Below are positions 13,453 through 33,930 of a stretch of DNA of 64,000 nt, in pieces. Origin of the DNA: Euglena gracilis (lineage: Eukaryota); contig CP154954.1 in the NCBI GenBank assembly GCA_039621445.1, positions 36,937,703 through 37,001,702 on the forward strand, given 5' to 3'. Both the position numbers and the translations under genes were made by a program. Position 1 is the first letter of the stretch, and each line of letters starts with the position of its first letter. Under the pieces are notes generated by a model. The model ran no database searches. It was not told where the DNA came from and worked only from the letters and a program-made list of their open reading frames with translations.

Positions 13453-14382
13453 GTTGATGTGACCCTCCCCCCACAAAAACGGATCCGTAAATCACATTCC
13501 CGTTACGGTTGTGGGAAAAGTGATGAATTGTCATTGCGGGGAACCAATCCCGCGGTTTGCGGGGCTGTTTTCGTTGATTCTGATTTTTGGTGTTTGGTCG
13601 CGACAAGCAACAGATTACGAAATTCAACAAATCCCCCCCCCAAAAAAAGCGCGCTACATTCAAAAAAGAGGGTAATTTGCTCCTTAAAAAGGGATTAAGC
13701 AAAAACCCCAACAACAAAGGGATCCCAACCAATAAAAAAAAGGAGTTTACTCCTTGTGAGAAAGAATCCCTCACGGAAGGCTAGCCTAACAATAAAAAAA
13801 AACCTGAAGCCTAACAACCAGATTTCTTGAATGACGGTTGGTCAAAAAATGGTTCGCAAGGGTTGGAAACGCGAAACCATGCCTAGGCCCCATTGTGGCT
13901 CGGCGTGCAACTTTCGTAGTTGCAACCCGACCCGCCTTGGGTGCCCGCAAAGTGTCATCCTAAGCATGAGTGTCGTGTGGTCTGTTGGGATAAAAACCGC
14001 ATACCTTATTGTGATTGTGAACACGCGACTCACACATACGCGGTACCGTGGCGGCGAAGGAGCGCGGCGTGTGGCGGCGGGCGGCGGCGACACCGCACTG
14101 TTGCTACACACCGTGATCCGCACCGTTGCGCCACTTTTGCGTTGCACCGTTGCACCATCTTCCCCCAGGGGTGCGGTGTGGCCCGTTGGGCTGCCCCCCC
14201 CCCCACCATCACTCGCATGGGGTAAGGCGTGGCCCTTTTGGCTGCCCCCCCCCTCGTTGCTCTTACCAACCGCACACACACTACTTCTTTTTTTTGCAAA
14301 CCAAATTATTTCTTTTGCGCGGACCCCTTCTTTTTTACTCACGTTTTTTGAAATCTCCCCGAGATTTTTCTAAGTGGGGGAG

Positions 14383-14905
14383 TGTAAAGGGGTCCTAACC
14401 TTGGTCCTAACCTAACATTTGGCCAAAATTTGCCTGAGTGGGGCCGAAAGTCACTGAAATACCACTTTTTGGTTTTCAGTCGAATTTAACCTAGGGAAAA
14501 GATTATTATGGTTCGGCTTGAAAGCCTGAACTCAATTTTTGACCTTGCTGGGCCGATTCTTTGAAATTTTCAAGACCGGCCGACCAATTTTCCACAGTAG
14601 CATTTGCAATTTCCCCCCAATTACCCTAAGAAAGTCCCCACTCGAACCCAGCAATTTCAAACCAATCTCACACACAGGGTTCTTAGCCCATACCAATGCA
14701 CTGGACAAGACTACAAAAAAATATCAATTGATTGTGCATGCAAGATACAGAATTTGAAAAAAAATGAATTTCAAGGTGCAGCTGAAAAAGCCCAAGGACA
14801 AAAAAGAAAACATTGAAGATTTTAGCTTCGAAGCCCGGCGGCCGCCTCAACAAAAAGCCGAGGCCGAAGGATCCGCAAAAAACTCGAACCAAGAAAGGGT
14901 TTTCA
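14383..14905 (+). repeat. 3' LTR of element A
   Basis: Preceded by PPT AAGTGGGGGAG; ends ...GGGTTTTCA followed by TSD CCAC. Confidence 0.95.
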
Positions 14906-14909: not shown

Positions 14910-15572
14910 ATATCAGGGGCATCTCCCCCACAGGCGCCCAGTCACCTGTACACAATTTGGCCAGAAGACGGGGAGATGGAACCAAGGCCAAGGAGGTCAA
15001 AACTACAAGGGCCATGGAGGCCAGTTTCACAAGCAAATCCCCTCAGGAAGGGGAAGAAAAGGTCTGTCGAACCCCCCAATTCATCTGGAACAGCAGCCCC
15101 TCTCAAGGGGGAAGGGGGTGGCCACAGCAGCCCCCCCAGATTTCCAGTGGGGTTGGAGGCCAAGAAGAACTCCAGGCCTGGAAGACCAACAGATGGATTA
15201 TGGAGAAAGGTTTATACATGGAGGCCTTGGAGGCCAGCAGGGTGGACCCACAGTGGCCACCAAGAAGCTAAGGGGCATCATCCCCAACCAGCAGGGTGGA
15301 CCCACAGTGGCCACCAAGAAGCTAAGAATGCTGCTGGAGAAATCCCCCGAGGGACCCACAGAGGCCCTCTGCCAAAAAAGGGGGGAAAAGGGACCCACAG
15401 CGGCCCTTTCAATGGCCCAGCCTCAGGAGGAAAAGGGACCCACAGTGGTCCTTTTGGAGGGAGGGGCAGGAACCCCTCCAGCAATTATTTCTCAATTCCC
15501 GATGGTTCAATCAAGGGGGGGACCCACAGAGGCCCCTATGGTATGTCAACCAACGACAGCAACGTGGAGAAG
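14910..15572 (+). CDS. DIRS ORF1, segment 2 of 3
   Basis: YQGHLPH...PTTATWR with internal GPT repeats; in frame with segments 1 and 3. Confidence 0.75.
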
Positions 15573-15888
15573 TGTGTACCAGGCGTATGCTTCTGTCCCC
15601 TTCCGTTGAGGAAGTTAGGATGGAAGCAGATCCTATTAGGATCTCCTAATGGGTGCCCCTTCTCTCTCCACAGGTGGTATTCTTCTTTATACCTTTTCCT
15701 TCCTTTCCATCGGACCGGACTTGGTTATCCAGTCCGTACTCCCTGCATTGCTCCGTGCTTTGCTTCTTGGGAAGTGGGAAAAGGGTTTTTACTGTTACTC
15801 TGATTTTCAGTTCCCAAGTAGGTGCGCCAAGGCGAAAGCGAAGGCTTTTGGGAATTGGGAAAGGGGAATTGGGAATCAGACGTACACT
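15573..15888 (+). repeat. 5' LTR of element B (TGTGTAC...GTACACT)
   Basis: Appears identical by eye to 31822-32137. Confidence 0.95.
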
Positions 15889-15912
15889 TGGTAGCAGATT
15901 CGGTCACGATCC
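15889..15912 (+). promoter_or_regulatory. Primer-binding site, initiator tRNA-Met-like (second copy at 15959-15980)
   Basis: TGGTAGCAGA... matches the usual iMet PBS start. Confidence 0.8.
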
Positions 15913-16139
15913 TACACATACAGCCCATACAGAAAGAAAGGCTACCAGGTATTACACTTGGTAGCAGATTGGTTCGATCCTACGCTGACTGGCAGCGGAG
16001 GGCCCCTGCACCGTTATTACACGGTCGCAGCGTCAGCTCCCGGCTTCTAGTCAACGTCTAAGCAGACGAGCAGGCTCCGGAAGGTTCTGTACGGTATTAC
16101 CCGTTACAGCCCCTCTGGTGCCAGCACAACTGCTTAGTT

Positions 16140-19100
16140 TTGTGGGTTTTTGCTGCTTTTGTCACCAGAAAGATGCAAATCACAGGCCCCAACCATCAAT
16201 TCAACTATGCCTTATTACAGGCATCATTGCAAGACATTGACCAAGAAACTGGGGATTGGAAGCTTTTATGTGAAAGTGCTTCCAGTTCCCACGCCGATGA
16301 GGCACAATTGATTCAATTGTCACAATTGCAACACTTGTCATCATTGACAGTGGTCGGCGATGAGCCCTCCACATCATTGGCTTCAGAGGCTAATGCGGCC
16401 TCTTCCGCACTCACCTTGCCACAACGGGGGTATTCGCCTCTGTCTGCGGCAATGGTGCAGCTGCACACACCGGAGAGACCCGTGGTGATTCCGCCACCGG
16501 GCTTCTCTGGTGGTGGTGGGCTAGAAACCCCGTGTTTCTTTCAACCCCCACCGGCTCTTCCACCGGCAAGCCCTTACAGAGCTTTGCCACCACCCCCCGA
16601 TATCGGGTGCTATCCCGCACTACCTTGGCAACCAGAGACTCGCCTCGTGGTGCCGGAATTCTCCGGTACATCCCAACCCATGGATGACTATGGGAAGGGC
16701 ACTGGTGAGCTCCTCACTGCTGAGGATGTGCAGGATATTGTTGCTCGGCTTCCAGGGGATCACCCCCTTGTGAGGCAGTTCAACCATGTGCAACAATGCG
16801 TTGCAGAGTGTGCAACCGCATTGAACAAAGTGCTTCAGTTTGATGAGGACAACCAGAAACATGTCTTCACCAAGCTGGAACAGTGCTGGAATTACTTGCA
16901 GGAAGTTGGCAGATATTGCCAGAGAAATTTCGAAAGTGCGGGTATTGACCTTGCAAACTTTCGGGAAACCTTTGACAGAATATGCCAACAGCTCCCGCAA
17001 AACTTTCGGCAAATTAGTGAATGCATGCATGAAGCGGAAACGCGGAATGACTCCAAATTTCTGCACTTGCATGGCTCACTACAACAGTTATCGGGACAAA
17101 TGGAGTCCTGTTCATCCGCGTTGTTGCATTTGCAACAACAGTTGCATGCACGAGATTCCTCGTCTGGAACATCCAGCAGTGGTGGATTTGTGTCTATGGA
17201 CCATTTCACCACATTGTCCGCAACTTTCCATGAATCGCAACACCGCATTATGCAGTTGTGCGACGAAACGGAAAAGTTTCGGCAATTCCAGTCACAAGCC
17301 AACGAGAATTTTGCTCCCCACACGTATGTGCGGCAGTTGGAGGAGCGACTTTCCTGCTTGGAGCAGAAAACCTGCTATTGTGACGCGAATCAGGTTGGAT
17401 TATCCAATCTGAGCGCGAAAGTCGCGGAAATGGCACAACGGCAGGATTCCCTGCAGTTGCAGTTGCAATCCGACATTGGCGGGATTAACTCGGCCATTGC
17501 GGGTTTGCAACAAAGCTATTCCGCACTTTCCCACCGAGTTCCGGACATTAGCGGCATTCAGACTGCTATTGGGGAACTCCAGACCCGGTATGCATCGGTG
17601 TCTACCAAAGTAACGGAAATTCAGTCTCTACCTGCAGGTTCCAGTTCTCGGATTACCGAGAACCCTGATTTCAAGGCATTTTATGACAAAATGCTCACTA
17701 ACAATCAGGAAACCTTGCAAGATTTCTGCAACAGCCTATTACGGCTTGAGGAATCGGTGAATCGGAATTCCGGATCCACGCAAAGTGAGATTACCAGGTT
17801 GGATGAGCGAATTTCCGCGTTGTTGGATAACCCACAACCTGGAAATTTGCCCATGTGTACCACAACCGTGTTGTCGGATAACCCTGCACCGGTTGCACCC
17901 ACCACCACACCAACCAAGGTGGCATCACCTTTGCAGATTCTCTCAGATGCTGTAAAAGCATTAATGGGACAACTCCAGTTATTGGATAAGTCTCACGGGA
18001 AACTTGTCCAAGATGTTACCGGAATTTCCGAAAGGATTCCGCACTTGGATGACTTCTCCCGTTACCGCAAGCGTATTCGCGCTTTGGAGGATGAAGTTGA
18101 CCGTATTTGCGGCCAACTCCAACTCGTTGAGCATTTGGAGCAAAGTGTGCATGACTTGTCTGTGTGTTTGGATAATGGGTCCAACCAACAGCGGGTTTCA
18201 CACCGCAATTCGGCAGTATGCATTGCCGAAGATGCGCCAGATGCTCCAGATTCGCGTTTCCACAACCCGAATCTGGGTGCACATGCACCACCACCACCCG
18301 TGTCCCGAGTGTCACAATCCGCGATTCCGCAAATTGTGCCACCATTGGCCTTGTCCACAACCCAAACCCAGTTTTCGGATGAATCTCCCATTACGGGAAC
18401 CGAATTCGCGGAAAACATGGCGATTCCGCCAAGTCTCCACCAAGAAATCCATCATTCCAGGCTTGTGCGTGGAATGAGCCAAACCCGTACACCGGGTGTG
18501 GGTCACGTGTTGCATGCGCGACATACCCCCACACCGGAGAGTCTCCCTATTACGGGTGACCAACAGGGTTTGCGACCGGATTTCCGGTACCAGGATTCAT
18601 CTTCACCAGAAATTTCGCGATTTCGACAAGAATCCGGAAAGGATACGCTTGGTGCTCGAGCGTACCCGGGCCCGAATCCACGGAATACCACCGAGGGCAA
18701 ACGGGTTTTTCAGAAAGACTTCAAGGGCACCATCGCAATCGCGAATAAGGTGAAACCCCAGTGGGATGGTGCTCCAACCACATGGAGACAGTTTTTCCGG
18801 GACTGGGAGTACTACTGGGCATTGAAAGGGCCAACCCAGGACACAAACCCGGAGGTGATCAAGATGGAATTCATCGATTGCCTCCCTAGGGATGAGAAGG
18901 AGCGTGCGCGACAACTCGTCATTCGCTACCGCGTTTCCTTTGATGACCTGGTGGAGCAATATGCTTCCACCAGTTCAAGTTTGGTCGCTAGGATTACCCT
19001 GGAGACCAAGTGGCGGCAATGCGCCCCACCCGATCGCAAGTGGTAGTCCATTGACCTTTGGTATGCCAAATGGTTAGGACTTGCCGCTGAAGTGGATGAA

Positions 19101-20149
19101 CTCAGTGAAAAGCAAATGCGCGAACAGTTTGACGCTGTTCTCATGCATTTCACGCCTAGCCTCATCAAGGATATCCACCGTGAGGAGTTGGCGGGTAATG
19201 CAATGACTCTTGACCAACGCTGGAATTATGTTTCCAAGCAATTGAAGCTATCACAGCTTCTTGGTCAGATTCAATCCGCGTATACCGCACACCCAACCGC
19301 TGGATTACCGGCTGGTTCGGTGAACGCATTGCAAAAAACACCGGTTTCACCTACTTCACCCATAACGGGATCGAAAACGCCATACCCGCGTTCTTCGGAC
19401 CAAGCCACGGATAAAGTGTGCTTTTTGTGTAACAAATCGGGACATATGTCTCGGGAATGTCCTAACCCTGAAGCGCGAAAGCGTATTCAGAGTCCGCGAG
19501 GCTCGACTTCATCACGAGGTTCGGGTTCCTCCGCGTTTTCACGCCAATCGGGCAATTCACGGTCATCGGGTCCCCGTTCCGGTGGTATTAGCCCCCGGAT
19601 CCCGTTCCGCGATGAGCGGAAACACGGTACCCCTCGGGGTAGGTCACCCGGTGCCCCGGCCAAGAAGCGTGATTCTCATCGCGAGACATCGCGATCGCGT
19701 TCGCGAAGCGGATCATCTTCTTCGCTATCCCCATCGGGAAAACCCCGATACACCGGTCATGTCGACGGGATACCCAGTCACCACGACGGTTTGACGGGAA
19801 ATCGGGAAACCGATCCCCCCGTTACCCAGACTCGCGACACAAATCTCGGTGTTCGCTTTGTGGATCGAGTGATCACCACTCATCCAAATGTCCGCGTTCT
19901 CGTTCTCCCCGCCCTGGCCAACGTCATCGCGGTATGAATCGCGGTGACAAGGGTCACTCCTCCAACCGCCATAAAGTCGGTTTCAAGATATCTTGTTTGG
20001 AGGATGACACCCCGGCTTCGGGCAGGGAGGGGGATGAGACCACGGATACCGATTTCGACGAGGCCCGCATGGCGGTGCGCACGTTGAAATCCGTTTATAC
20101 CTCTAAAAGACCCATAGCCGGCTATTCGGCCGCTTCGGACCTGGAGTAG
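16140..20149 (+). CDS. gag: Very large Gag-like region of element B (coiled-coil N-terminus, two CCHC knuckles; internal TAG at 19044 and a -1 shift near 19740-19850)
   Basis: ORFs 16140-19046 and 19092-19937 share a frame and are separated only by the TAG. Knuckles are CFLCNKSGHMSREC and, in the -1 frame, CSLCGSSDHHSSKC (19850). Confidence 0.8.
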
Positions 20150-21259
20150 GGGAGCCCGAGGTCCGAGGGCACGGACCTCTGGGCTGATGAACAGATGGAG
20201 GTAGGACCTGATCAACCCTGCCCCCCCTGCCCATCTGCCTTTCTGGTCGGTACCCGGAAAATTTTCGGGTCCCCCTCCCCCCACTCCAACTTTCCGCTCG
20301 GAATGTTGTGCAAAGTAGGAAAGGGTTCATGGGAAAGCTGGCAAGAAAACGCATTTTCGCCAGACCCTTCACTTTGCTTACCCCCCATGGAACTTTTGGT
20401 CCAAGCGGAAATCAAAATCCAAAATTTTTGTACAAAAGTCAAAATTCTCATTGACACTGGTTGTCGCATTGCACTACTTTTTCGGTTCGGGTTGATACCA
20501 ACCCCACTCTTGGTGAAAGCCAAGAAGCCGATCAAAATTACGACGGCTGACAACACCCCCATGTGCGGTGGTGACTTGGGATGCTTTTTGGACATAGTCC
20601 TACCCCTCATCCCCAAGCACCACTCACACCCCCCCCAACCGCAAAATTTTCCGGATACCTGGGGATACGAATCCGGAATCCATGGTTCTGACGTAATTAT
20701 GGGATACCCCTTTTTACGTCAGCACCGGCTGGTAGTGGATTGCCACTCCCACGGGTTGCGCACATCACCGTTCTCTTCATTGCCCCCCAAACCTTCATCA
20801 CCTGTGGTGTCAACCGCGATAGCCACCAATTTTTCCACACCGTTTTCGAAAACTTTTACCCCGTTACCAACCACACCAACCAACGTTTTCCACACCGGGT
20901 GTACCGAGAAAGTTTCCCCCCTGCCCATTGACACACCAACTTCCGTCCCCCATGAGGCAGGGCAAGCGAGTAGCGGTACCCCCCTCGTTCCACTGGGTTA
21001 CAAGACGAAAGCCCAAAGGCCTGAAGTACGTACGGTGTCGAGTAGTCGCCCAGCTGCATCAATACCCCGTTTTCCACCAGATGTATCCTTTCAGATACAT
21101 CGGTACACCCCCCAGCAGCTTCAAAAGCGCATCCCAACTTTTACACACACACCCACCAGAACAACATGCGCGACCAGGACCACTACTCCGACACTTCCTT
21201 CCAATGTGTGCACTGTAGGAGAATTTCCGCCCAGCCAGATTTCGATTGTGGATGTCTAG
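20150..21259 (+). CDS. Retropepsin-type aspartic protease plus low-complexity linker
   Basis: KILIDTGC and DVIMGYPFL motifs; in frame with gag across TAG 20147-20149. Confidence 0.85.
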   Translation, partial: GSPRSEGTDLWADEQMEVGPDQPCPPCPSAFLVGTRKIFGSPSPHSNFPLGMLCKVGKGSWESWQENAFSPDPSLCLPPMELLVQAEIKIQNFCTKVKILIDTGCRIALLFRFGLIPTPLLVKAKKPIKITTADNTPMCGGDLGCFLDIVLPLIPKHHSHPPQPQNFPDTWGYESGIHGSDVIMGYPFLRQHRLVVDCHSHGLRTSPFSSLPPKPSSPVVSTAIATNFSTPFSKTFTPLPTTPTNVFHTGCTEKVSPLPIDTPTSVPHEAGQASSGTPLVPLGYKTKAQRPEVRTVSSSRPAASIPRFPPDVSFQIHRYTPQQLQKRIPTFTHTPTRTTCATRTTTPTLPSNVCTVGEFPPSQISIVDV

Positions 21260-21587
21260 TCCAAACACCAACACTAATCCCGATTTCGCGTAACCATACA
21301 CTTGGTTGCGGATCGCAATGTGCGACCGTACATCAAGTGCTCCAACAACGAGGTATTGCCTTGTTGTTTGGGACCGCGAAATCCGTGTCACACACCTCCC
21401 CCACCTCCATCTGGCATGATATGGACTGGGTATGCACCCATCCAACCCATCAACCCTTGGGAATGCCCCTTGGGAGTGTGGATGACACACCCTTGACCTA
21501 TGTTTGCGGATCCCTGAATTGCGTTACCGCTCTTCAACCCGCGAACCAGGTCGACACCTACGCGATGCGCGTATGGAACGCATTTAA

Positions 21588-24500
21588 TTTTGTCAATACC
21601 GTATTTTGGAGGAATGGTTCTCCAAAATCGCGGCTTTGGCTGATTCCTTCGATTTGTCGTTGGAAATTGATGCGTTCTCATCAAAAGCGCATGCGCGCTT
21701 GTCGCGATATTGGTCGCGACATACCAACGCATTTCTTAAATTCTGGGGTGATACGGTGCTATGGATGCACCCTCCCCCAAAACTTATCCCGGATGTGGTG
21801 GAGAAAATCCTCCGCGATGAAGCGCGAGGAGCTCTCCTCATACCGGTCAATCTGAATGCGGATTGGTTTCACCAACTATCCTATGTGTGTTTTCATTGGT
21901 GGGATTTATCCGCTGATGTACCACTATTCGAGGATTTTTGTGGTATATTATTACCACCTGTTAAAGAAATCATTTTTCGCGTTTGTTTCTTTGACGCATT
22001 CGGAATATCCGATTTGCGTGTGCCAAGATACCTTGGTACGGATGTGGATGCCACACCCTCAACGCAGATTTCTGCGGTCATTGAGAGTGCGGACCAACAC
22101 CCCAAGTCTGCTGACTATTGTTCGCGAATTACTCGCGAATTTCATGGTGTACTGGATAATCCAGTTTACGCCTGCGACATCGACCCCGCGATTTGCGGTC
22201 CGTTCGGTGTATGCAAAATCGAGCTCAAGGATGGCGCTAAACCCATGCACCGGAAATTCTTCCGTTGTTCGGGTGAACGCGAACAGGCTCTCAACGAGAT
22301 GATTGAGAAGCTCATCCAGCGGAAGTGGATTATCCCTTCCAAGAGCGAGTGGACATCACAAGCTTTTGTGGTGCCCAAACCTGCTGACCAGTCTGGTCAG
22401 AAGAAGTGGAGACTAGTGCTGGATTACCGGTACTTGAACTCCCAAACGAAGGATGACCCCTTCCCGTTACCGCTGATCGAGGATTTGATCACCAAACAAT
22501 CGGATAATCGGTCGTGGTCAATCTTTGATCTGGAAGACGGCTTCCATCAGATGCATTTGCATCCTGATTCGCAACCGTACACGGCATTCGTGACATCCAA
22601 GGGTGTGTACCAATGGACGGTACTCCCCATGGGTGTTAAGAATGGCCCAGCCATGTTTCAACGCATGATCCAGTGGGTTTTGCGCGATTTACCGTTTGCT
22701 CTGGTGTACATCGATGATGTACTGGTGGGAACCCAACCGCCATCCGCGAAATCGGGCGAGGATATCCTCGACCCGCATTATCGCGATGTGCGCGCGGTAT
22801 TATCCGCGTTCCAAAAGCATGTGCTTTTTGCGAAGGGTTCCAAAATGCACCTGTTTCGCAAAATTATTAAGTTTTGCGGACACATCCTGAGCAACGGGCA
22901 GCGTAAAGCCGCACCCAGTAAGATGGAGGCCATTAAGAAATGGACTCCTGAGGTCATTAAGACCTTAACGCATTTAAAGGGATTTTTGGGATTAGCCCAA
23001 TACTACGCGATTTACATGAAAGATTTCGCGAAAATCGCGGTACCCCTAACCCGACAACTCAAAAATCGGACACCCGATAACGCAAAAGTCATTTGGGATG
23101 ACCAAATGCGCGAGGCCTTGAATAAAATCAAGGACTTGCTCCTCGAGAACGTGGTTCTCGACATCGCGGATCCATACAAACCGTATGTCCTGGAGGTCGA
23201 CAGCAGCGATTACGCTGTTGGCGGGGTTCTTAGCCAGCATAATGCGGCGAATGCACTCCGACCTGTGGCTTTCTTCAGCAGGAAGCTACAGGGCGACAAC
23301 GGGAAAGGACAGGTTAAATGGAGCATTCGCGAAAAGGAGACATATGCCATTGTGCTAATTCTCCAGAAGTTCCGCAGCTGGATAGCCAGCAGCCTGGTCC
23401 AGATACTGGTGTTGACGGATCATGAGAGCCTTCAACACTGGTATACCGAGGACCTGAACAAGGCCATGTCATCAGTTGGCAGAAGATGCCGATGGCATGA
23501 GTTCTTGAGCCAGTTTAACCTGGTGGTAGTTTATACCCCAGGTCATACGCAAAAAGTTGCGGATCCTCTCAGCCGAGCCCCCTGGTATTATCCTGGGAAC
23601 CCGGATGAGGGTGATGCGACTTTTCATGGCAGCCATGAGGCTGACCAGTTCGCACGTCGATCCGACGCTGCGGACAACATGCTCGATTCACTACCCGTTT
23701 CCCGGGTGTATCGCAGCATCGCCATTTCACCATTGCGTGGAAGGCGCCGGCGTGGACGCACTGCCACTGCCACTGCCGGACCCCGTCGCATTACGCGTAC
23801 GGAAACTCCTACCCCCCTATTTTTCCGCGAATGGGATTATTCGCGCGACCCGGTATATAGTACCATTGTGAATAGACTTCGTAATGGTGAATCCATAGAG
23901 AATTACTCTCTATCACCATTGCGGCTTATTTTCCGGAATGATTCTGGTTATAAATATTGTATACCCCAAGACCTGGTTGATGATGTGATTTTGAGCTATC
24001 ACAACCATGGTCACCCTGGGGCCCCCAAACTTCTTTCACTAGTGGGTCGCAGATATTGCACAACCCTGAGTGAAAAAGATTTATATTCGCGCTGTTTGCG
24101 AATTTCGCAACGGTGCCAAATTTGTCAGGCTGTGAAACCGCGCAGAGGTACCCCCCCTGGTACGATGGACTTTTTCCCCGTACCACCTGACATTTTTACG
24201 TCCCTCTGCATGGATTTTCTCGAACTTGAACCTTGCAAAGGATCAGATGACAAAATTTACGATTACGTTTTTGTTGTCGTCTGTCGGCTGAGTGGGTACA
24301 TAGTAGCCATTCCATGCCGGAAAGCAGGGTTGACAGCCCAAATTTTGGCATCCATATTCCTGGAGAAATGCATCTGCTTAATGGGTTTACCGAACGAAAT
24401 CGTGAGTGATCAAGATCACTTGATCTCTTCGCGGTTTTTCACAACTTTGTGCGGTTTACTCGGCATTGAGCAGCATTTTTCCATTATATACCGCCCGAAA

Positions 24501-25286
24501 GGCAATGGTAGAGCCGAGGCAGCCGTGAAATCCGTTGTCAATATGCTTCGCCTTTCACTGGCTGACTCGGGTAAGAATTGGTTATCCGTTCTTCATTGGT
24601 GTTTATTTTACATCAATACCTTGCCAGGGTTGGTATTACCACACTCACCGTACAAAATTGTTTTCGGACGAGACCCTCCGGCCATAGGGGATATCCCCTC
24701 GGAGAGACCCGCCCGAAGTAGCGTCAGCTGTGAAACGTGGTTTGCAGAAGTGGAATCACTCCGCTCTGCAGTCCAATCACGTATCACAGAAATTCATTCC
24801 AACAAACGGAAATCGTTTTTACAGAACTTCAACACACCTGTGTATAGTCCAGGTGACCGCGTGTGGGTACGGAATAACCGCACCCGCATGCAATCTTCCA
24901 AGCTAGATCCTCTTTGGCTCGGCCCATGCGAAATTTTGGAGAGGTTAGGTAGTAGCGGGCGATATAAAGTTGCCTTGCCCAACGGGATTGAGGACGTCCA
25001 TATGGACGACTTCAAACCGTACCTAAGCCCCCCAGACGGAAAAGCTATCCCCTGCCTATATTTCAAGCCCCGTTCCAGATTACCTGAAACGGACGACTTT
25101 GTGGTCGATAAGATAATAGACCACAAGGTCGACAGGGGTGTGCACTACTGGAAAGTTCGCTGGAAAGGGTATGGGCCAGAGGAGGACACTTGGGAGCCAG
25201 CATCCAGTTTTGTTGGATATATCCAGCAGGATTGGAAGCTGTGGAACAAGCGCAATAACATAGACATAAACATAAACACTTTCTGA
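21588..25286 (+). CDS. pol: Pol: Dam-like N6-adenine MTase domain, RT, RNase H, integrase, chromodomain
   Basis: MT: IDAFSS...NAF...LWMHPPP...LLIP...WF. RT: DYRYLN, FDLEDGF, PMG, YIDD (22707). RNase H: VDSS/EKE/TDH/VAD. Integrase: HHCC plus MDF/SDQD/AE and GPC. Chromodomain: [10 protein letters not shown]...[15 protein letters not shown]. Confidence 0.95.
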
Positions 25287-25481
25287 AACGATTTCGTTTT
25301 GGAGAATGCGTGTGTTTTATGTGAATGTTTCGCGTTTATACCCCCCCCTGCACTTCATTATTTCTCTATCTTTCTCGCAGAGTTTTGATTAAGATAGAAG
25401 CCTTCTTTTTTCAGTGCACCAGCACTCAAAGCGACTGACAACAAGGTTATCCTTAGTTGTCGTCGTCGTTCGGGTAGCATC

Positions 25482-28400
25482 ATGCTGCCTGGGCGCGGAC
25501 CTGGACCAGGTCCACCATGGCCGCAGCCTTCTGGCGCGCCATACCCCCAGTACCCTCAGTATGCTGAGGCCCCGATTCCGGGTGCCCCACATGCTGAGAG
25601 GGTTTCAGCCCCGGTATTCGCCGCGGCTACCAGCAGCCGGTCCGCATATGCGGTACCAGATCCATCTGCCGTCCAGCAGCCGGCACCTCAGCCACCAGCG
25701 CAGCGCAGATCGCGCCTGCCCCCGTATGCGGGAGAGATGATCTTCCGCACTACGGAGACGTTGGAGCGGGCGATGCGTATGTGCGCACACCCCCCAACGG
25801 AGCCCTTTATGCAAGCCCTTTGGGATGCATACTGTGCTCAGTTGTTGGTGGTAGCCAACACCCCTGTGGCTCAGTGGTGTCCCTGTGGTCAGGCCCTGAT
25901 GACAGGGAGACGGTATTTCTCGTCCGCAGCCGATTCCGGCTTCGAACCCGGCGAGACCATGATGGACCTGGGCGTGTATGTGCCGCCCATGCTGCAAACG
26001 GAGACGCCGGTGGGATCCCACACCGTGCATATGCGTGAGCACACGCCCCCACCGGTAGGTGAGGCTGTGCATGTCCCACCTGGGATGACGAGAATTTTTG
26101 CTCGCCCGCCCTCGCCGCAGCGAATGCCGCCGCGCGAGCCGCCAGCGGAGCAATTTGTCTCGCGGTACGCGACGCACACGGATTACCCGCGCGGCGCACG
26201 CGTGCTCCCAGCCGGACAGTCGGACGTGCCCTCTGAGGCATACGTCCAACACATGTTCATGCACTGGATGCCACAAGCATCACCGGTCGCCCCTGTCCCT
26301 GGCGTTGAGCCACGGCGGCAGGTGGAGCCCATAGTGGTGGAGGATGAACCTCCCCGCCATGCGGCAACTCGACCGCCCAGTGCACCTCCTGTCCAACCCG
26401 GGGATGTCCCGCGTCGGCAGGAGGCTCCCTACTACCACATGGCACCTCCGGGAACCGAGCAGGATGAGCTTGCTCGGCATTTCCTGCAGGAGCCAGTCAC
26501 GTCTGAAGAGCACCGGGCGAGGTATTACTCCTCGCTGGCCGCCCTTCAGGGCCGTGGATACACCCCGTACCATCCGTACCAACCGCAGCTGCGGGTGGCG
26601 ACCCCGGTATTACCCGGTGAGCCCCCGGCAGGAGCGGCAGGATTACCTGCCACCCTGAAGCGCGATAGGGTTACGGAGAACCTTACCCCACAGCCCAGGC
26701 GACCCAGCCCACGGGACGCGGAAGGCGGTGCGGCAATGCAGGTGGAAGCCAGCCAGGATACCCCGGCTGGGCAACCACCGGCAGTGGCACAGGCAGCGAT
26801 GAGCCGTCCTGTTGCCGCAATGCCACCGCCGATCCCTCCGGTATGGAAGGAGCCGCGACCCCCTACGCCGAAACCAAGCCCACGCCAGGCTCCTAGCCAG
26901 CGCCCAGCCACGCCGTCACCGCGACGTGCAGCGGAACGGCAAGGTCCCTCCCCAGAGATGGAATGGGAAGGTACCGAACCGACTCCTGCCGCACCGAGCG
27001 CCCGACCCTCTGGTATTCGCCAGACAGGGAAGGACAAAGGTAAGGCTGAGGGCAAAGGCAAGGGAGAAGGCAAAGGCGTGGCCGGCAAAGGTAAGGGTGA
27101 GGGCAAGGGTAAGGGTACAGCCCGTGAGGAGGAGGAAGAACCAGCAGAAGTCCTCTCGGACTTTGAGCAAATGCTCAGGTTCAAGGAGGAGCTGGAGGAC
27201 GAAGGCTGGCGAATGCAGCATGATTACCATGTTGCAGGAAACCGCCCCGTCACCCCTCCGGAGGCAGTCATCGAGGTGGTATTACACCACACCGAGAACA
27301 GAGTCAGACAATTCCATTACGGAATTGACCTGTACGCCTTCGAAGGTGAAGGTGGCAGACCCTTGCTGGATATCCAGCCGGGTTTCTGGGAACTCTGGTT
27401 TTGGCTGGGATACCCCTGCCAGAACTGGGGTCTCTTCAGCGACTCCACTGGCCGCAGTTACCTGCACCAGTTAGGATTTCGGGACCAGCATGTGTTGGCC
27501 CGAAGGCTGAAGGCAATCTTCGACTGTATTCACACAGTCGGGCCCCTCGGTGTGCAGTGGAAATACTACCCACTGAACCCCGACATCGAACGCCTGATCG
27601 AGGTGTTGTGGTGCAACAACCTCCAGGTGTGGCTGGTGAGCCATTACGGCTCCACCTTCCGCGTTAGGCGTGTTTCCCTGGCTTACCCACAGAGGTATGA
27701 CCTCTGTTGTAAGTACTGCCGGCAGGAATTTCCTGTCGACTTCTGGGGATTCGGCGTGCGCGGAAGTCCTCCACCGCCTCGGGATAACCCGGGCCTGGAG
27801 ATGGGACGCCGCATGCTTATGCATGTGTGCCGCGACGCCCCGGATGTCCAGGGCAAAAGTCGCCGCGTCCATAAGCAGCGTATTTTTATGCTGCAACAGT
27901 TCTGGTGGCGAGCCTGGACCACCTACGTCATGGAGGTGTATATACATCTCCGTGACCCCCAGGACGATAGGCCTGGTATGGAAAGCTTGCCACCAGACTA
28001 CGGCGACCCCGTTGAGGGACCTCGTCGTCGTCGGGTTATCGCCGACCTGCGCCCCAACTGGCACCTGGCCGGGATAGACCTGGAGGAACATTTGAGGCGA
28101 CAGTTTGGCGGTACCCTCGACAGGGAGGTATTCCTCCAGCTGATGAATCACCCGAAGGCCATCCTCGACCTGGGTATGCCGATTCTGGCATGCGTGCAGG
28201 AGTTCGAGGACGGGTTTTTCGAGGTCTGGGAAGACACGCGTTACCGCGGCTTCCTGGGCCCGAACAGGCCTGCAAACGCTTGGGTGCAGCCATCATGGCC
28301 GCCACCCTGGCCCAACAGCGCCAGTAGCAGTACGCTGGCCTTTTACAGGCTGGCGGATGCCCAGGGATGCCGATGGCACCCGACGATCCTCGTTCGCCCG

Positions 28401-28649
28401 AGGATCTGCGCGCCTTCATCGCCCCAGAGGATGAACCTCTGGCGCGAAGGAGACGGGAGGCGTCAGTCGCTTCCACCACCGCGATTCCGCGGCGGGAGGA
28501 ACGCGACCGCAGCCCCTCCGTCACCATACTGGAGGCAGCGCCGCCGTCTCCGACAGGAACGGCTGTATCATTCGTCTCTGCCCCGCGAGCGGCAGGGGAA
28601 CGATCGGTTTCCCCGGCCCCCGCGACGGCTCCCGTCTGTCCACCGGTAG
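25482..28649 (+). CDS. Extra 3' ORF of element B, part 1 (Pro-rich, GK repeats, globular W/C/H-rich domain; unknown function)
   Basis: 1055-aa ORF inside the LTR boundaries, preceded by a polypyrimidine-CAG acceptor-like site at 25380. Confidence 0.7.
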   Translation: MLPGRGPGPGPPWPQPSGAPYPQYPQYAEAPIPGAPHAERVSAPVFAAATSSRSAYAVPDPSAVQQPAPQPPAQRRSRLPPYAGEMIFRTTETLERAMRMCAHPPTEPFMQALWDAYCAQLLVVANTPVAQWCPCGQALMTGRRYFSSAADSGFEPGETMMDLGVYVPPMLQTETPVGSHTVHMREHTPPPVGEAVHVPPGMTRIFARPPSPQRMPPREPPAEQFVSRYATHTDYPRGARVLPAGQSDVPSEAYVQHMFMHWMPQASPVAPVPGVEPRRQVEPIVVEDEPPRHAATRPPSAPPVQPGDVPRRQEAPYYHMAPPGTEQDELARHFLQEPVTSEEHRARYYSSLAALQGRGYTPYHPYQPQLRVATPVLPGEPPAGAAGLPATLKRDRVTENLTPQPRRPSPRDAEGGAAMQVEASQDTPAGQPPAVAQAAMSRPVAAMPPPIPPVWKEPRPPTPKPSPRQAPSQRPATPSPRRAAERQGPSPEMEWEGTEPTPAAPSARPSGIRQTGKDKGKAEGKGKGEGKGVAGKGKGEGKGKGTAREEEEEPAEVLSDFEQMLRFKEELEDEGWRMQHDYHVAGNRPVTPPEAVIEVVLHHTENRVRQFHYGIDLYAFEGEGGRPLLDIQPGFWELWFWLGYPCQNWGLFSDSTGRSYLHQLGFRDQHVLARRLKAIFDCIHTVGPLGVQWKYYPLNPDIERLIEVLWCNNLQVWLVSHYGSTFRVRRVSLAYPQRYDLCCKYCRQEFPVDFWGFGVRGSPPPPRDNPGLEMGRRMLMHVCRDAPDVQGKSRRVHKQRIFMLQQFWWRAWTTYVMEVYIHLRDPQDDRPGMESLPPDYGDPVEGPRRRRVIADLRPNWHLAGIDLEEHLRRQFGGTLDREVFLQLMNHPKAILDLGMPILACVQEFEDGFFEVWEDTRYRGFLGPNRPANAWVQPSWPPPWPNSASSSTLAFYRLADAQGCRWHPTILVRPRICAPSSPQRMNLWREGDGRRQSLPPPRFRGGRNATAAPPSPYWRQRRRLRQERLYHSSLPRERQGNDRFPRPPRRLPSVHR

Positions 28650-30997
28650 GTGGAGACCAGGAACTTCCTGAGGAGGAAGGTGAGAACGTGGAGGATATCC
28701 TCTACGCTGCTCTGCATGCTCCGGCACAGCCTCGGCCAGACGAAGCACCCGCAGGGGATATACCTGTGGCTGCAACGCCTGTCCCGACGGCTGAGCCTCC
28801 AGCCGAGGTGACTGGTATGGTCGTCGAGGATATCCTCGAAGAACCTGCCAGTCCCACAGCACGCACCTCGTTAGGAGGCCGTGTGCTCGGCGCCGTGGTC
28901 ACTGGCATTACTGCCGTGGCTGCTGCACTAACGCCACGAGGTGGAGGCGTAGCATCAAGCTCCGCCGCAGAGGTCGTGGAGACACCAGATGTCGGTATCC
29001 CCACACCCCCATCTCCGGCAGAAGTGCAACCATCTTCAGGGGATGAACCCCAACCGACAGAGACATCTGTCGCACCGGCTACACCGGAGGATCAACCTCC
29101 CGTAGCACCTGCGCCAGCGGTTGTGGAGGATCAACCTCCTAGACCGGATGTCGAAATGGAAGTGGAGGAGATACCCCCACGACCACCGACACCGCGCAGG
29201 GTCCCTGCCGTCCCGAGGACAATGGCAGAGTTTCTGGGAGCGCCAGCGCCTGTGGAAGCACCGATTCCGGTGACGACCACAGTGCCACGCCTCGTCGGAC
29301 AGGATGAACCTGCTCGGCGACGGCCGGCTGAAAAACCCCAGGAACGTGTGCCGACCCCTCGGAGCGTCATGCGCGACCGAGCGGTCAGTATGCCCGCTTC
29401 GCCCAGACAGCAAACGTCTACTCCGGCACCATCGGCTCCTGGTACCAGGAGTAAGCCGCAGGCGTCGTCTCCTGATTCCGGGAGTGCGAAGCCGAAAGGA
29501 GGCAAACCGGGTGCTGCACCCTGTAAGCCCCCTTCCAAAGGCGGTGATGGGAAACCACCACCGAAAGGTGGCGCTGGAGGTCAGACTGGCGGACAGCCGA
29601 AAGGCCCTACGACAATGCACGACTATTCGGCCGTTGCATCGTCCGGGTACGGCCAGAGCAAACCGAAAGGTAAGGCTCGTGGTCGACAGGCCCAGTCTTC
29701 CTCCGGATCGACGGATGAGGAGTAGAATGAACCTGCTTCACCTCCTGTGTCTGCGGATGCCCAGCTCTGGACCCAGGATATCCTGACCAGACTAGGCACC
29801 GTGGAAGAGAGGACGAAGAAACTGGCTGCTATTAGGCACCAGACAGGGTCACTGAATCGATGGATTCAGCCCCTCTTCGTCCGCGGAGAACCTTTCCACT
29901 ATGTCCCGGAACATACCTGGACATTCTGGAACAGGCGCTCACCCAGAGTACTGGCACAGTACTTTGGCGAGGACTGCGTGTTGGATTTCCAGCACGGCAC
30001 GTCCTTTGCCTGGACGTGCACCGTGTGCCACCATGTGCGGCACAACCAACCGCTTGTGCATGTGTGCAAGCGGCAGGTGCAATCCTCGTGGTTCCATCAC
30101 AGGGCATATGTGCCGAACTGTGTGGCGCTCGTATGTGGCGAGTGCCTGAATGCCTGGAAGCACAGCTTGAACTACTCCTACAGTGAGAATGCTCACGACA
30201 GGGATATCCCTGCCTTGTGCATCAACTGTATAGGAGGCAAGTTCGTGCAGACTGCTGATGGAGCAGTCACCACCATTGTCCCCCAGCACTGGGAGACACT
30301 GGAGAAGTGGAAGAAGGAGTACAAGCAGGTGGAAGGCCGCCTGAAGCACTCCGACTTCAAAAAGGTAGAAAGCTACCGCCACACGGGAATGGCCCGTGAG
30401 TTCCAGATCGACGCTGGGGCAATGCGCCTCGCCGTCGAGGAACACGCCAAGGTAAGAATGCCTTACCTCTGGACTGATGGCGACTGGGAGACACAGGTTT
30501 ACCCCCTGTTCTCCAAGCGTCAGCATGGCGGATACGCCTTGCCACTGTGGCCTCCTGAAGAACACGATTTGGTGGACTTCAGAGGTTGGTTGGCGGCTGT
30601 ATTACGGCCCCATACCGCAAGAGCTCGGACAGCGAGGTGGATGTATGACATCAACTTCAAGCAGACCCCGGGGATGCCCCCGCAGGTGCCTGCGAATCAC
30701 CCCCGGATGAATTACATCATCTGGCCGGTGATGCTGCCCAGAATTTTCTGGGAGCAACTCCAACGGTATCTTCAGCATCATGCTGAACGTACCAGGGAGA
30801 AGCTGCCGGATAATTGGATCAAGGACTGGGAGACCCCTTCCTTTGATGTCAACGATGCGGAGCTCAACACCATTCGGAGTGAATCAGCTCCGCCGCGTTC
30901 CCCACGCCAACTGGAGTTGGTTGAGGACCCATTAGGGGACCCCCAACACGACTACTGGCGTGAAGTCCGCGAACGTGCAGCCGATAAAGGCAGGTGA
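28367..30997 (+). CDS. Extra 3' ORF of element B, part 2 (acidic/Pro-rich linker, in-frame TAG at 29723, RING-like Cys/His domain)
   Basis: ORFs 28367-29725 and 29747-30997 share a frame. Motif spacing is CTVC...HVC...H...C...CGEC...CINC. Confidence 0.65.
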
Positions 30998-31810
30998 GGT
31001 GTCTGTCAGCGCCAATGCGGCGTCTTTCAGCACCCTCGTCAGGTATTCGCCTGACACCCTGTTTGGGTATTCGCCCGAACAGCCCTTTCGAAGACCCTTT
31101 GCGGTGTTCGCCGCTAGTAAGTTCCCACCGGGATGCTGCCATGTGCAGGATTCCGTGCGCATGCATGCACACCCTTCTCCCCTCTCCCCTCTCGCGGGCG
31201 TGCGACACGCAGCGCACAGGGCCGACGGCCTCTTTTCCTTTCCCTCTCTTTTCTTTTCGGCCGTTTGAGGCCTTAAGGCTGCCAGACAGCACCATTTTTC
31301 TGGCCTAAGACAACCCCCCACTCCTCTCTACTTTCCCCCCGGGGCAAGTGCTGTCGCCGGCAGTTGGTTTTGTAGAGTAGGATTGCCTTTTGCGTGGTCA
31401 GATTTGACTGGCCATGCGCCCTGCCCAGGTTTGACTGGTCAGAGGCCCCCTCCTTCCACACCCTCCCCATGGGTTTTCCTGGAATGCCCATGGACCAACC
31501 CCACGTGCCTTTGGCACACCCAAACTGGGTGGATGGGTTTGCTTGGCAAGGAAACCTGCCAGCCCCATTTTCGCCAGTGGGCTATAATATACTATATACC
31601 CATAAGCCACCGCAGAATAGGTGAAACCATTTTGCGCGTTTTGGGCTTTTTGGGTCCCCTCCTTTCCGCCCCCCCCCCCTTTGAGTGGACCCCTGTGCGA
31701 CGGAAAGGGCCCCTGTGGATGCGCAAGGGTGCACCTCCCACAGACCAGGTCTGTGTCCAACGACCCTGTGGCCAGAATGCCTGGTCCAAAGGGGAAATCG
31801 GGCATAGCCC

Positions 31811-31821
31811 TGGGAGGGGGA
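31811..31821 (+). promoter_or_regulatory. Polypurine tract of element B
   Basis: TGGGAGGGGGA immediately precedes the 3' LTR. Confidence 0.85.
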
Positions 31822-32137
31822 TGTGTACCAGGCGTATGCTTCTGTCCCCTTCCGTTGAGGAAGTTAGGATGGAAGCAGATCCTATTAGGATCTCCTAATG
31901 GGTGCCCCTTCTCTCTCCACAGGTGGTATTCTTCTTTATACCTTTTCCTTCCTTTCCATCGGACCGGACTTGGTTATCCAGTCCGTACTCCCTGCATTGC
32001 TCCGTGCTTTGCTTCTTGGGAAGTGGGAAAAGGGTTTTTACTGTTACTCTGATTTTCAGTTCCCAAGTAGGTGCGCCAAGGCGAAAGCGAAGGCTTTTGG
32101 GAATTGGGAAAGGGGAATTGGGAATCAGACGTACACT
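31822..32137 (+). repeat. 3' LTR of element B
   Basis: Direct repeat of the 5' LTR, followed by TSD AGAAG. Confidence 0.95.
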
Positions 32138-32142
32138 AGAAG

Positions 32143-32467: not shown

Positions 32468-33930
32468 TTCCATGCAGGAAAAGTGGGGAGACACCCCCCC
32501 CATCAAAGGCTACAAAAGAGCCTGAAATGGTGGAGAAAAAATGCCCCCCCCCAACAACGTGTCAACTAATCAGGGATGGCATTCAAACCCCTTGGGTGAA
32601 CCCACCAAATTGTCCACCCACCCAAAACCCAGGGCAAATTTGAACCTGCACCAAGCAGAAAAAATACTCCTGGATTACGAAAAATGTGGATCCGTAAAGA
32701 GGGTGAGGGATTCAACCACCCAGCATCTAATCCCCTGGTTTCTGATTTCGAAACCAGAAGGGGAACAGACAAAATGGAGACTAATAAGCGATTGCAGGGA
32801 AACAAATCAAAGGTTCCAAGTGAAACCTTTCAAGCTAAGCTGGATCACATCCAGCACATTTTTCCAGTTTTGCAAAAAGGCCACTGGGCATCCAAAATAG
32901 ATTTAAAGGATGCTGACTTCCACATCCCAGTGAGCCCGGCCCTAAGGCCTTTTCTAAGGCATCAGGTGGGGGGGCAGAACTGGGAATTACAGGCAGGCTG
33001 TTTTGGCCTGAATGTAATGCCCCGGATTTCTATGTCAGTAGTGAAGACATTCGAAAAGCTGTGGAGGAAAATGGCATCCAGGTATTTATTTACCTGGACG
33101 ACATTTTACTGGTGGCCCCAACGCAAAACATCTTACAAAATCACCTGAACACAGTGGTCAGGGATTTAATTAAATCAGGATTCAAACTCAATGTGAAAAA
33201 GTCCACCCTGGAGCCCACCCAAATCGTAAATCATCTTGGATCTCAACTAAACTTCCAAGAGGGAAAATTACAGGTTCCCCTCCCAGAAAATAAAAACAGT
33301 AAAAAAGGAGCTGGGAAAAATGGTGAAAAAAGGTTACATGTCAAAAAGGCAACTGGCTGCCATTTTGGGCCAAATCAGATGCAATATAATGGCCTTGCCA
33401 TTTCTAAGGGCCTTTACGGATGCCCTGGCAATTTTTTTAGTGGAAAATTCCACAGGCCCCTGGGACTCAAAACATCCCATTTCCCAAAGAATAAAGGACC
33501 AATTAAGGGAAATAAAAATTCTGCTGTACACCTGGGGCGGCAGACCCTTCCCCCAAAGTGCAACCAGGGAGTTGCACTCAGACAGCAGCACCCATGCCTG
33601 GGGAGGGGGGGCTGGACATTCGAAAAGGCAAAATTGTGCAAGAATTTTGGAGGGAAAAATCCATTTTGCACATAAATGTCAAAGAATTAAGTGCAGCAAT
33701 AAGCACAGTTCAAAGCCTCAGCCAGCCAGGAGAAACTGTGTCCCTGTCAGTGGAGAATCAATTAATTTACTATTACTTAACAAAAGGGGGGGGGCAGAAA
33801 AGACCCCTTCAATTCCATGCTAAGGCCCTTTTTCAAATGGTGCATGAAGCACAACATAAACCTGCAAGTAAAGTGGGTCCCATCAAAGGAATGCCTGGCA
33901 GACCCCATAAGCAGGAGGGAAATGGACAGG
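32468..33930 (+). pseudogene. DIRS reverse transcriptase and RNase H (frameshifted)
   Basis: KWRLISDCRETN, SKIDLKDADFHIPV, CFGL, FIYLDDILL (33091), LHSDSSTHAWG, HINVKELSA, WVPSKECLADPISR. Confidence 0.9.

Follow-up and report, generated by a model that had tools for sequence, protein, structure and literature searches.

We describe a DAM domain, related to phage adenine methyltransferases, in a complete 16.6-kb long terminal repeat (LTR) retrotransposon at positions 15573-32137 of a 64,000-nucleotide stretch of Euglena gracilis DNA (GenBank assembly GCA_039621445.1, contig CP154954.1, forward-strand positions 36,937,703 to 37,001,702; the window). The domain (21588..22007, + strand) is almost certainly the DAM of a DAM-LTR retrotransposon, with a class-I S-adenosylmethionine (SAM)-methyltransferase fold and descent from the phage PF05869 N6-adenine DNA methyltransferases. 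Since its catalytic tetrad is eroded to HPPP and further changes in the pocket have become fixed, conventional adenine-N6 methyl transfer by the lineage of this element seems unlikely, as judged from the sequence. As the domain is conserved despite this erosion, we propose, giving the idea about an even chance, that it has been retained as a pseudo-methyltransferase, which may serve in nucleic-acid binding or scaffolding.

A reading of the window made from its letters alone (the sequence-only reading) had proposed a Dam-like N6-methyltransferase domain fused in frame within a chromovirus-like Pol, and this identification was borne out. When the first 201 residues of the open frame were scanned alone, Pfam returned Dam (PF05869) at residues 15-96 with an E-value of 1.7e-5 and 25.0 bits, below the gathering score of 28.1 bits, and the PHROGs returned phrog_111, 'DNA methyltransferase' (E 1.5e-5). 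The TIGR01712 model of phage N6-adenine methyltransferases matches weakly (13.5 bits against a cut-off of 97.05). The low Pfam score is common to the clade described below, as all nine sequences scanned from it (9/9) fall under the Dam gathering score; relatives with the canonical motif, found by phmmer, reach 42.8 bits against the same 28.1. A hidden Markov model (HMM) of the family gives the window domain 162.6 bits, and a HMMER search of 1.84 billion representatives with residues 1-156 found 362 proteins at E<=1e-3, 85 at E<=1e-10 and 5 at E<=1e-30. A PDB sequence search with the domain alone gave only weak matches (E >= 0.56) to unrelated proteins, and one with a 72-sequence profile gave no match. 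Metagenome contig scans with the clade alignment and with the nearest relative, P0003, gave no confirmed locus, and word-index protein searches returned only P0003 (lengths 677-2156) and P0006 (lengths 85-273).

The family HMM also detects two other methyltransferase domains in the window, one in a DIRS-like copy at 33781-34404 (+), which reads ANPPW, and one at 39454-39004 (-) in a separate LTR-type element, element C, where it is broken into three frame pieces (...LWMNP / EPPF...). The resemblance to the DIRS (NPPW) and element C (NPPF) domains that had been seen by eye is thus supported by the model. As had also been observed, the placement between protease and reverse transcriptase is unlike either: the reverse transcriptase lies upstream of the methyltransferase in the DIRS-like copy, and element C has its methyltransferase upstream of protease, reverse transcriptase and RNase H.

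In the AlphaFold2 model, built with a 72-row alignment (mean pLDDT 92.4, pTM 0.84), the domain is predicted to be a class-I SAM-methyltransferase (Rossmann-like) fold with strands at residues 4-6, 27-29, 40-42, 57-60, 80-86, 101-106, 114-116 and 130-136 and helices at 8-20, 64-76 and 92-98. A non-Rossmann fold, which would have spoken against the identification, did not emerge from AlphaFold2, Foldseek, VIA-align or the predicted viral structures of BFVD. In the model, D28 lies inside strand 27-29 and HPPP in the loop directly after strand 57-60, a placement that agrees with the account a review gives of motifs I and IV, which sit where neighbouring parallel strands finish on their carboxyl side (PMC7544214). 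Foldseek gave no PDB match at E<=1e-3, the best being PCIF1/CAPAM (6irw_B; E 1.1e-3, probability 1.00, TMq 0.54); the PDB matches listed are all SAM-dependent, methyltransferases or methyltransferase-like, with amino-methyltransferases on top. VIA-align against 48,161 chains gave PCIF1 (Z 10.9; 3.0 A over 129 aligned residues), PH1948 (Z 10.5) and METTL5 (Z 9.4), followed by T4 Dam (Z 8.9), E. coli Dam (Z 8.4) and M.TaqI (Z 8.1), values to be read with the caution that Z of 7-8 is common among unrelated best matches. Among the predicted viral structures 19 matches reached E<=1e-3, and the best fold matches are models of phage N6-adenine methyltransferases (E 2.3e-10, TMq 0.73).

The first ~140 residues of the open frame read as had been quoted, with the motif MHPPP at residues 60-64; HPPP itself is encoded at nucleotides 21768-21779. 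In a 12-row alignment, H61-P62-P63-P64 stands in register with N-P-P-Y of three annotated phage N6-adenine methyltransferases (from Aeromonas phage 4_4572, Planktothrix phage PaV-LD and Edwardsiella phage eiAU, found by tblastn using the canonical relative P0152), and D28, P62 and P63 are invariant. The replacement of the catalytic tetrad, which had been read off the sequence by eye, is therefore confirmed, and HPPP falls outside the (D/N/S)PP(Y/F/W) form of motif IV. When 143 retrieved domains were aligned at the motif, NPP[F/W/Y] was found in 61/143, Asn with another tetrad in 35/143, a tetrad beginning with His in 30/143, one beginning with Cys in 12/143 and other tetrads in 5/143, a census biased to the kin of the window domain because that domain served as the query.

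The phylogeny against phage and DIRS domains that the sequence-only reading had called for was built by maximum likelihood from 103 domains with the motif columns excluded. The window domain pairs with P0003 (HPPL) at a Shimodaira-Hasegawa-like approximate likelihood ratio (SH-aLRT) support of 99, within a 13-row clade supported at 97 and, once three phage outgroups are added, at 99. The DIRS-like domain, 24% identical to that of the window element, groups with the canonical ones. The motifs of the 13 rows are NPPI (four rows), NPPV (two), NPPL, HPPF, HPMF, YPPI, NPHY, HPPL and HPPP; an NPP-aromatic tetrad occurs in 0/13 of them, against 47/103 rows of the tree and all three phage outgroups, and the fourth tetrad position varies among P, L, I, V and F. 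A second clade of 12 rows carries HPP[N/D]-type motifs (support 97). Constraining the two clades together is not rejected (approximately unbiased test, p-AU 0.617), so that one erosion cannot be told from two and an independent origin of the His-bearing groups is not shown.

The members of the HPP[D/N] clade (P0060, P0062, P0079, P0086, P0087, P0094, P0098, P0101, P0106, P0108, P0150 and P0068) are strongly conserved among themselves, and several are 330-437 residues long. No Pfam transposon domain was found in the ten members scanned; they may be fragments, or else belong to a protein that arose from DAM and is not part of a transposon.

The erosion extends beyond the tetrad. Among 28 positions that are each at least 60% conserved across 47 canonical rows, the window domain keeps 20 and departs at seven: P25L, A31S, N35H, N61H, F64P, W88N and P108S. 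Several of these changes are shared across the 13-row clade, where A31S is found in 12/13 rows, N35H in 11/13, a non-aromatic residue in place of F64 in 10/13 and a replacement of W88 in 9/13; L25 is common to the window domain and P0003. The P-P core is retained, P62 in 13/13 rows and P63 in 11/13.

In spite of these replacements the domain seems to be under constraint. The 13 clade rows, each representing a separate 50%-identity cluster, keep 52% mean pairwise identity and 22 invariant columns, compared with an average of 37% among the canonical rows. Among copies of the window family, synonymous changes make up 9/15 of the differences in the DAM domain, where random single changes would give 22% (binomial p 0.0016), a count taken from the 40 best-supported of 116 contig differences, with the other 76 not listed. 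Within the HPPP codons the listed changes fall only at 21770 and 21779, and both are synonymous.

The element that carries the domain begins and ends in LTRs identical at 316/316 positions by blastn and encodes a chromodomain (Pfam Chromo, E 6.8e-10), in agreement with the earlier description of a young chromovirus. Its features, all on the + strand, are as follows.

15568..15572, +, target-site duplication AGAAG in the flanking sequence, 5' copy; the 3' copy is at 32138-32142
15573..15888, +, 5' LTR of 316 bp (blastn against 31822-32137)
15889..15905, +, putative primer-binding site, beginning TGG and abutting the 5' LTR, inferred from position alone
16062..19937, +, gag-like frame of 994 + 296 codons, ending in TGA (list of open reading frames)
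19044-19046, +, internal TAG of the gag-like frame
~19416-19466, +, CCHC zinc knuckle in the gag-like frame (Pfam zf-CCHC, E 8.9e-6)
19673..21259, +, protease frame, -1 relative to gag, with a 265-nt overlap with gag (list of open reading frames)
20147-20149, +, internal TAG of the protease frame
20453-20461, +, D-T-G of the protease motif LIDTGC in the protease frame (direct inspection)
21087..21088, +, first one-base shortfall against other copies, a frame change (comparison with P0003 and public-run contigs)
21205..21255, +, Cys4 motif CxxCxRIxxQxxFDCGC between protease and DAM, shared with relatives
21591..21592, +, second one-base shortfall, which makes the apparent start of the Pol frame (comparison with P0003 and public-run contigs)
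21588..22007, +, DAM domain, phage-Dam-like and PF05869-type, residues 1-140 of the frame (Pfam, PHROG, HMM and fold)
21669..21671, +, Asp28 at the end of strand 27-29 (IDAFSS; 12-row phage alignment and model)
21768..21779, +, motif IV HPPP in the loop directly after strand 57-60 (alignment and model)
22374..22889, +, reverse transcriptase RVT_1, residues 263-434 (Pfam, E 6.1e-26)
23094..23516, +, RNase H (RT_RNaseH, RT_RNaseH_2), residues 503-643 (Pfam)
23961..25007, +, integrase: Integrase_H2C2 at residues 792-852, rve at 873-970 and Tf2-type SH3 at 1089-1140 (Pfam)
25098..25205, +, chromodomain, residues 1171-1206, downstream of rve and SH3 (Pfam)
25284-25286, +, stop codon TGA of the Pol frame
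25398..30997, +, three long frames (1083, 465 and 423 codons) past pol and within the element (list of open reading frames)
31812..31821, +, polypurine tract GGGAGGGGGA, directly preceding the 3' LTR
31822..32137, +, 3' LTR (blastn)

In the standard code 21588-25286 forms an open frame of 1232 codons, and Pfam places RVT_1, RNase H, Integrase_H2C2 and rve in the DAM domain's own frame, so that the order in the element is protease, Cys4 motif, DAM, reverse transcriptase, RNase H, integrase and chromodomain. With a DDE integrase, LTRs and a methyltransferase ahead of the reverse transcriptase, the element is not of the DIRS1 type. The protease frame has no Pfam protease match; the LIDTGC motif, seen by eye, is common to P0005, P0007, P0009 and P0013.

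That Pol has its N-terminus at the DAM domain, which had been taken as the first 140 residues of Pol, does not hold, because in intact relatives the domain follows the protease and a Cys4 linker. In P0003 (1208 residues; 76-77% identical in the domain), the one close full-length relative among the word-indexed proteins, the frame of DAM extends some 300 residues further upstream. The counterparts of these residues in the window lie in frame 1 at 21046-21591 and, before that, in the last part of the protease frame, so that protease, linker, DAM and reverse transcriptase are continuous in a single frame of P0003. Compared with P0003, the window lacks a single base close to 21087 and another close to 21591, and these shortfalls of the window copy produce the stop at 21585 and the frame change. 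A LIDTGC-type protease motif, CxxCxR[IV]xxQxx[FY]DCGC and DAM share one frame in P0005, P0009, P0010 and P0013, as the protease, Cys4 motif and DAM do in P0003, and the reverse transcriptase is also in this frame in P0003 and P0009. The arrangement protease-Cys4-DAM-reverse transcriptase is therefore the normal order of the lineage.

Contigs from public runs, aligned to 20900-22300, show exactly two indels relative to the window, at 21087 and 21591, and no others. The longer form makes up 24-28% of the summed contig depth, which is not copy number, in two DNA runs: 57158/203505 and 80256/332341 near 21087, and 86578/360794 and 126921/510361 near 21591. In two RNA-labelled runs the longer form provides the sole covering contigs near 21591, and 10.6/28.8 and 46.1/95.8 of the depth near 21087. 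The window copy is thus one base shorter at each site, and the DAM domain lies inside a longer polyprotein. Programmed frameshifting was considered for both sites and rejected, as there is no slippery heptamer at 21585-21594 and other copies are merely one base longer.

The DAM domain belongs to a very large, sequence-variable family, with 10,600 and 12,449 contigs from two DNA runs on 1.4 kb. The stretch is present, whole or in part, in 20/24 listed runs from 16 studies. Contigs of one RNA-labelled run and of one run guessed to be RNA cover the DAM domain, and these are not counted as expression because such libraries can hold DNA.

The Cys4 motif at 21205-21255 reads CVHCRRISAQPDFDCGC and is kept in P0003, P0005, P0009, P0010, P0011 and P0013; it matched no known family. 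A Cys4 zinc-binding module before a methyltransferase fold resembles the zinc fingers of METTL3, by analogy only (PMC7544214).

The architecture recurs among relatives, as seen in a Pfam scan of 47 of the best 150 (those of at least 300 residues) and later of 12 more. DAM lies upstream of RVT_1 in a single protein in 11/47 (P0003, P0009, P0017, P0025, P0029, P0032, P0036, P0045, P0065, P0102 and P0121, with the DAM position of P0017 and P0121 taken from the HMMER search and not from Pfam) and also in P0155. Integrase domains are added in P0003, P0017, P0032, P0102 and P0155, and a chromodomain as well in P0155. DAM stands beside a copia-type RVT_2 in P0137 and P0152, and the DIRS order, with reverse transcriptase/RNase H ahead of DAM, is found in P0110 and P0149.

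The chromodomain is best matched by those of MPP8, HP1 and Clr4 (E about 1e-8), and has F, W and Y at three positions identical in the alignment with MPP8, which we take to be the methyl-lysine cage. The sequence-only reading had placed a methyl writer and a chromodomain reader in one polyprotein. The reader is present, but the pairing is loose: the chromodomain resembles readers of histone methyl-lysine, not of methylated DNA, so the two would not form a writer-reader pair for one mark, and the HPPP 'writer' may not write.

On the reading we favor, the domain is translated as an internal part of Gag-Pol, between protease with Cys4 and the reverse transcriptase. The Asn of the tetrad, which would contact the target amino group, has given way to His here. 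The aromatic residue, which would stack on the flipped adenine, is replaced by Pro here, by Leu in the nearest relative and by Ile, Val or Leu in most of the clade, and three further canonical conserved positions are exchanged clade-wide. The resulting pseudo-enzyme could act as a nucleic-acid-binding or scaffolding module on the reverse transcriptase, by analogy with METTL14 for METTL3, or alternatively might recruit another factor. METTL14, with EPPL, has neither the stacking aromatic nor catalytic activity (PMC5023411; PMC7544214), and at the first tetrad residue D29A in DPPY of M1.HpyAVI abolishes AdoMet (SAM) binding (PMC5173035). The alternatives posed at the outset, an altered enzyme or an inactive binding domain, were thus a fair pair; the sequence leans toward inactivity without settling the matter. 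More tentatively, and at somewhat short of an even chance, we suggest that the whole, highly successful DAM-LTR chromovirus lineage represented by the 13-row clade has turned a phage methyltransferase into a pseudo-enzyme under purifying selection, with the Asn and the aromatic of motif IV gone and the pocket positions N35 and W88 altered in step, a group that would possibly count 25 representatives if the HPP[D/N] clade belongs to it.

Several observations weigh against the proposal of a pseudo-methyltransferase, in which the function of the domain is deduced from sequence. Asn at the first tetrad position is kept in 8/13 clade members, and by our own reasoning His could in principle provide a hydrogen bond in place of Asn. 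Phytophthora DAMT2, of another methyltransferase family, carries EPPH and is active in vitro in one species and inactive in another (PMC6211444). Eukaryotic DAMs, canonical ones included, gave no N6-methyladenine (6mA) in an E. coli assay according to Fernandez-Moreno et al. (bioRxiv 10.64898/2026.05.21.726589, 22 May 2026), and in this family the canonical motif may therefore be no guide to activity. The copy in the window is defective in its own right, with two frame breaks and internal TAGs at 19044 and 20147, and S108 and L89, both at conserved positions, are private to it, nearly all contigs having Pro. The synonymous count is contig-derived from 40/116 differences, and a transition bias would raise the expectation somewhat. 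Finally, DAM is less conserved relative to P0003 (76-77% identity) than the reverse transcriptase (85%), RNase H (91%) and the integrase zinc domain (89%), and stands near the level of the linkers (70-77%); the unstructured stretch upstream has 48% with long gaps.

Some of the same observations would be expected if the domain were still an adenine-N6 methyltransferase, acting on the element's cDNA or RNA:DNA intermediate with HPPP as a tolerated variant; new insertions would then be mistaken for 6mA-marked permissive chromatin, and the mark would be maintained by host AMT1. We regard this as unlikely, though as a possibility to be taken seriously. The fold and layout are intact, with Asp at the end of strand 1 and the motif-IV loop after strand 57-60, the P-P core and 20/28 canonical positions are kept, and constraint acts on the domain. 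In three species, 6mA is reported to be higher on DAM-LTR insertions than on other LTR elements (bioRxiv 10.64898/2026.05.21.726589), and the EPPH-bearing PiDAMT2 is active in vitro (PMC6211444). However, neither of the two functional side chains of the tetrad is retained, the residue in fourth place varies freely within the clade, coordinated changes are found at N35 and W88, loss of the stacking aromatic is the stated cause of METTL14 inactivity (PMC5023411), and no eukaryotic DAM, canonical or otherwise, has yet shown activity (bioRxiv 10.64898/2026.05.21.726589).

The defects of the window copy could also mean that the domain is a decaying passenger, its function lost, drifting in an element that spreads without needing it. 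The frame breaks and the private L89 and S108 point that way, as do the roughly three quarters of summed depth in the two DNA runs without the in-frame extra base near 21087 and 21591 and the linker-level identity of DAM to P0003 (77%). This explanation is improbable to us, because drift would not be expected to leave the 13 representatives from separate clusters with their level of identity and invariant columns, nor to fix the replaced positions to new residues (Ser31, His35) instead of scattering them. The synonymous excess among family copies, the far lower conservation of the unstructured upstream linker, and the open frame shared by protease, Cys4 and DAM in five independent relatives argue against it as well. 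Very improbable, finally, is an enzyme with a new substrate, for example element RNA or a protein instead of DNA adenine N6. In its favor, the best PDB matches are the RNA adenosine methyltransferases PCIF1, PH1948 and METTL5, a DIRS-type relative (P0110) matches Pfam PCIF1_WW (E 2.3e-5), and the changes in the pocket are fixed and occur together. Against it, the match to phage DNA methyltransferases is much stronger (E 2.3e-10), PCIF1 and METTL5 use NPPF, which makes the fold match to them uninformative on a new substrate, and nothing points positively to any substrate.

A Dam-like domain in a chromovirus is no longer new, contrary to what the sequence-only reading had implied, since this domain combination is already in the preprint of Fernandez-Moreno et al., which reports 10,030 eukaryotic DAM proteins and presents itself as the earliest account of DAM in LTR elements other than DIRS (bioRxiv 10.64898/2026.05.21.726589). 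According to its main text, LTR elements with a chromodomain are 30.9% of DAM-bearing transposable elements, at least four DIRS-to-LTR transfers are inferred and five lineages named, and 'EpiLTRs' additionally carry a cytosine methyltransferase. The same text finds DAM-LTR insertions richer in 6mA than other LTR elements in three species, and proposes that DAM writes 6mA so that new insertions resemble active chromatin. It describes Asn-Pro-Pro as kept in almost all DAMs, with the next residue usually aromatic. The words 'inactive', 'histidine' and 'protease' are absent from this main text, the supplements lying outside the scope of that statement, and full-text literature searches returned no second paper on DAM in LTR elements. 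The eroded motif and the clade behind the window element are a detail missing from the main text of the preprint.

The window element resembles the DAM-LTR class in its PF05869-type domain within a Ty3/gypsy-like pol, in the existence of chromodomain forms, in the presence of DIRS and LTR carriers in one genome and in a predicted fold of a five-stranded sheet with flanking helices. It differs in its HPPP tetrad and a clade without NPP-aromatic members, where the family of the preprint has Asn-Pro-Pro-aromatic, and in the 5.6 kb of frames past pol. We file it as DAM-LTR in spite of HPPP because the motif in the preprint is a description of the family and not a criterion.

DIRS1-type methyltransferases belong to the same domain family and are detected by the same Pfam model (PMC3783388), and their function is stated as unknown (PMC3266345); these older papers place the domain in DIRS elements alone. 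In DIRS elements, however, the domain follows reverse transcriptase-RNase H, and protease, DDE integrase and LTRs are lacking; the DIRS copy in the window also retains NPPW. With phage PF05869/TIGR01712 enzymes of EC 2.1.1.72 the domain shares the fold and the order of elements (ExD at the end of strand 1, W..NPPY, VEK and LVP....WF), whereas those enzymes are free-standing and have NPPY, and the window domain, lacking the Asn and the Tyr, stays under both curated cut-offs. METTL14 and ciliate MTA9 likewise combine a methyltransferase fold with an eroded motif (EPPL), from which the catalytic Asp/Asn and the stacking aromatic are gone, and serve substrate binding (PMC5023411; PMC7544214), but they belong to the MT-A70 family, are cellular and form a heterodimer with an active paralogue. 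PCIF1/CAPAM is the best match among solved structures at the fold level only; it is about 10% identical, much larger, has a helical domain and is an RNA enzyme.

Other parts of the element are less readily placed. The gag-like frame 16062-19046 is unusually long (994 codons up to the TAG), with weak coiled-coil-type matches only (NPV_P10, E 1.1e-6, and an SbcC-like PHROG). The downstream frames at 25398-30997 lie in DNA of 62% G+C, against about 51% elsewhere in the element; they have no Pfam or PHROG match and no homologue at lengths 595-1896, on which grounds a cytosine methyltransferase or other known domain there was rejected. They may represent a gene of accessory function, sequence taken up from the host or a nested insert. 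The internal in-frame stops of the element's long frames (19044, 20147 and 29723) are TAG in 3/3 cases, the frames terminate in TGA (19935, 25284 and 30995), and TAG is the rarest stop triplet in the six frames of the window (589, against 911 TAA and 1809 TGA). TAG as a sense codon was rejected: three stops are too few to separate nonsense mutation from read-through, another element in the window has an internal TAA (10742) besides a TAG (9857), and nothing else speaks in favor.

Three DAM carriers with three architectures lie inside 20 kb of the window. The DIRS-like copy (32600-35500, +), with RVT_1 pieces at 32600-33672, begins about 460 bases past the 3' LTR. Element C (35946-39454, -) has a second, unrelated LTR-type pol, whose reverse transcriptase is 37% identical to that of the chromodomain element, in the order DAM (39454-39004), a frame at 39000-38527, protease, reverse transcriptase and RNase H. 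This frame reads LDLFCG...GVPCTEF and matches phrog_363 and phrog_757, 'DNA methyltransferase' (E 1.3e-4 and 5e-4), and, weakly, phage methyltransferase genes, with no Pfam family and no PDB match; element C may be a two-methyltransferase element with a putative second enzyme, resembling the 'EpiLTRs' of the preprint. Elsewhere in the window, direct repeats of at least 300 bp (98%) at 8518-8817 and 14403-14702 flank long frames at 8873-13452 that have no Pfam match, so that 8518-14702 looks like an LTR-like element. The only tRNA found in the window is tRNA-Val (GAC) at 44778-44846 (-), and an Rfam scan of the whole window gave no match.

If the proposed pseudo-methyltransferase is correct, selection on a retroelement DAM would not be, or not only be, for methyl transfer, and the selected role would be one such as attaching to the RNA:DNA intermediate or bringing in a methylase of the host or of another element. 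Such a role would matter both for the preprint's model of 6mA mimicry and for the long-standing question of what the DIRS 'MT' does. A large, young, multi-copy family whose domain is eroded yet conserved offers a natural test of that model, and since the window also holds two canonical carriers, the DIRS element with NPPW and the LTR element with NPPF, one methylome could compare all three. Equal 6mA enrichment on the eroded family would mean that the host, or an activity supplied in trans, writes the mark, whereas an eroded family that thrives without 6mA enrichment would place the value of the domain elsewhere.

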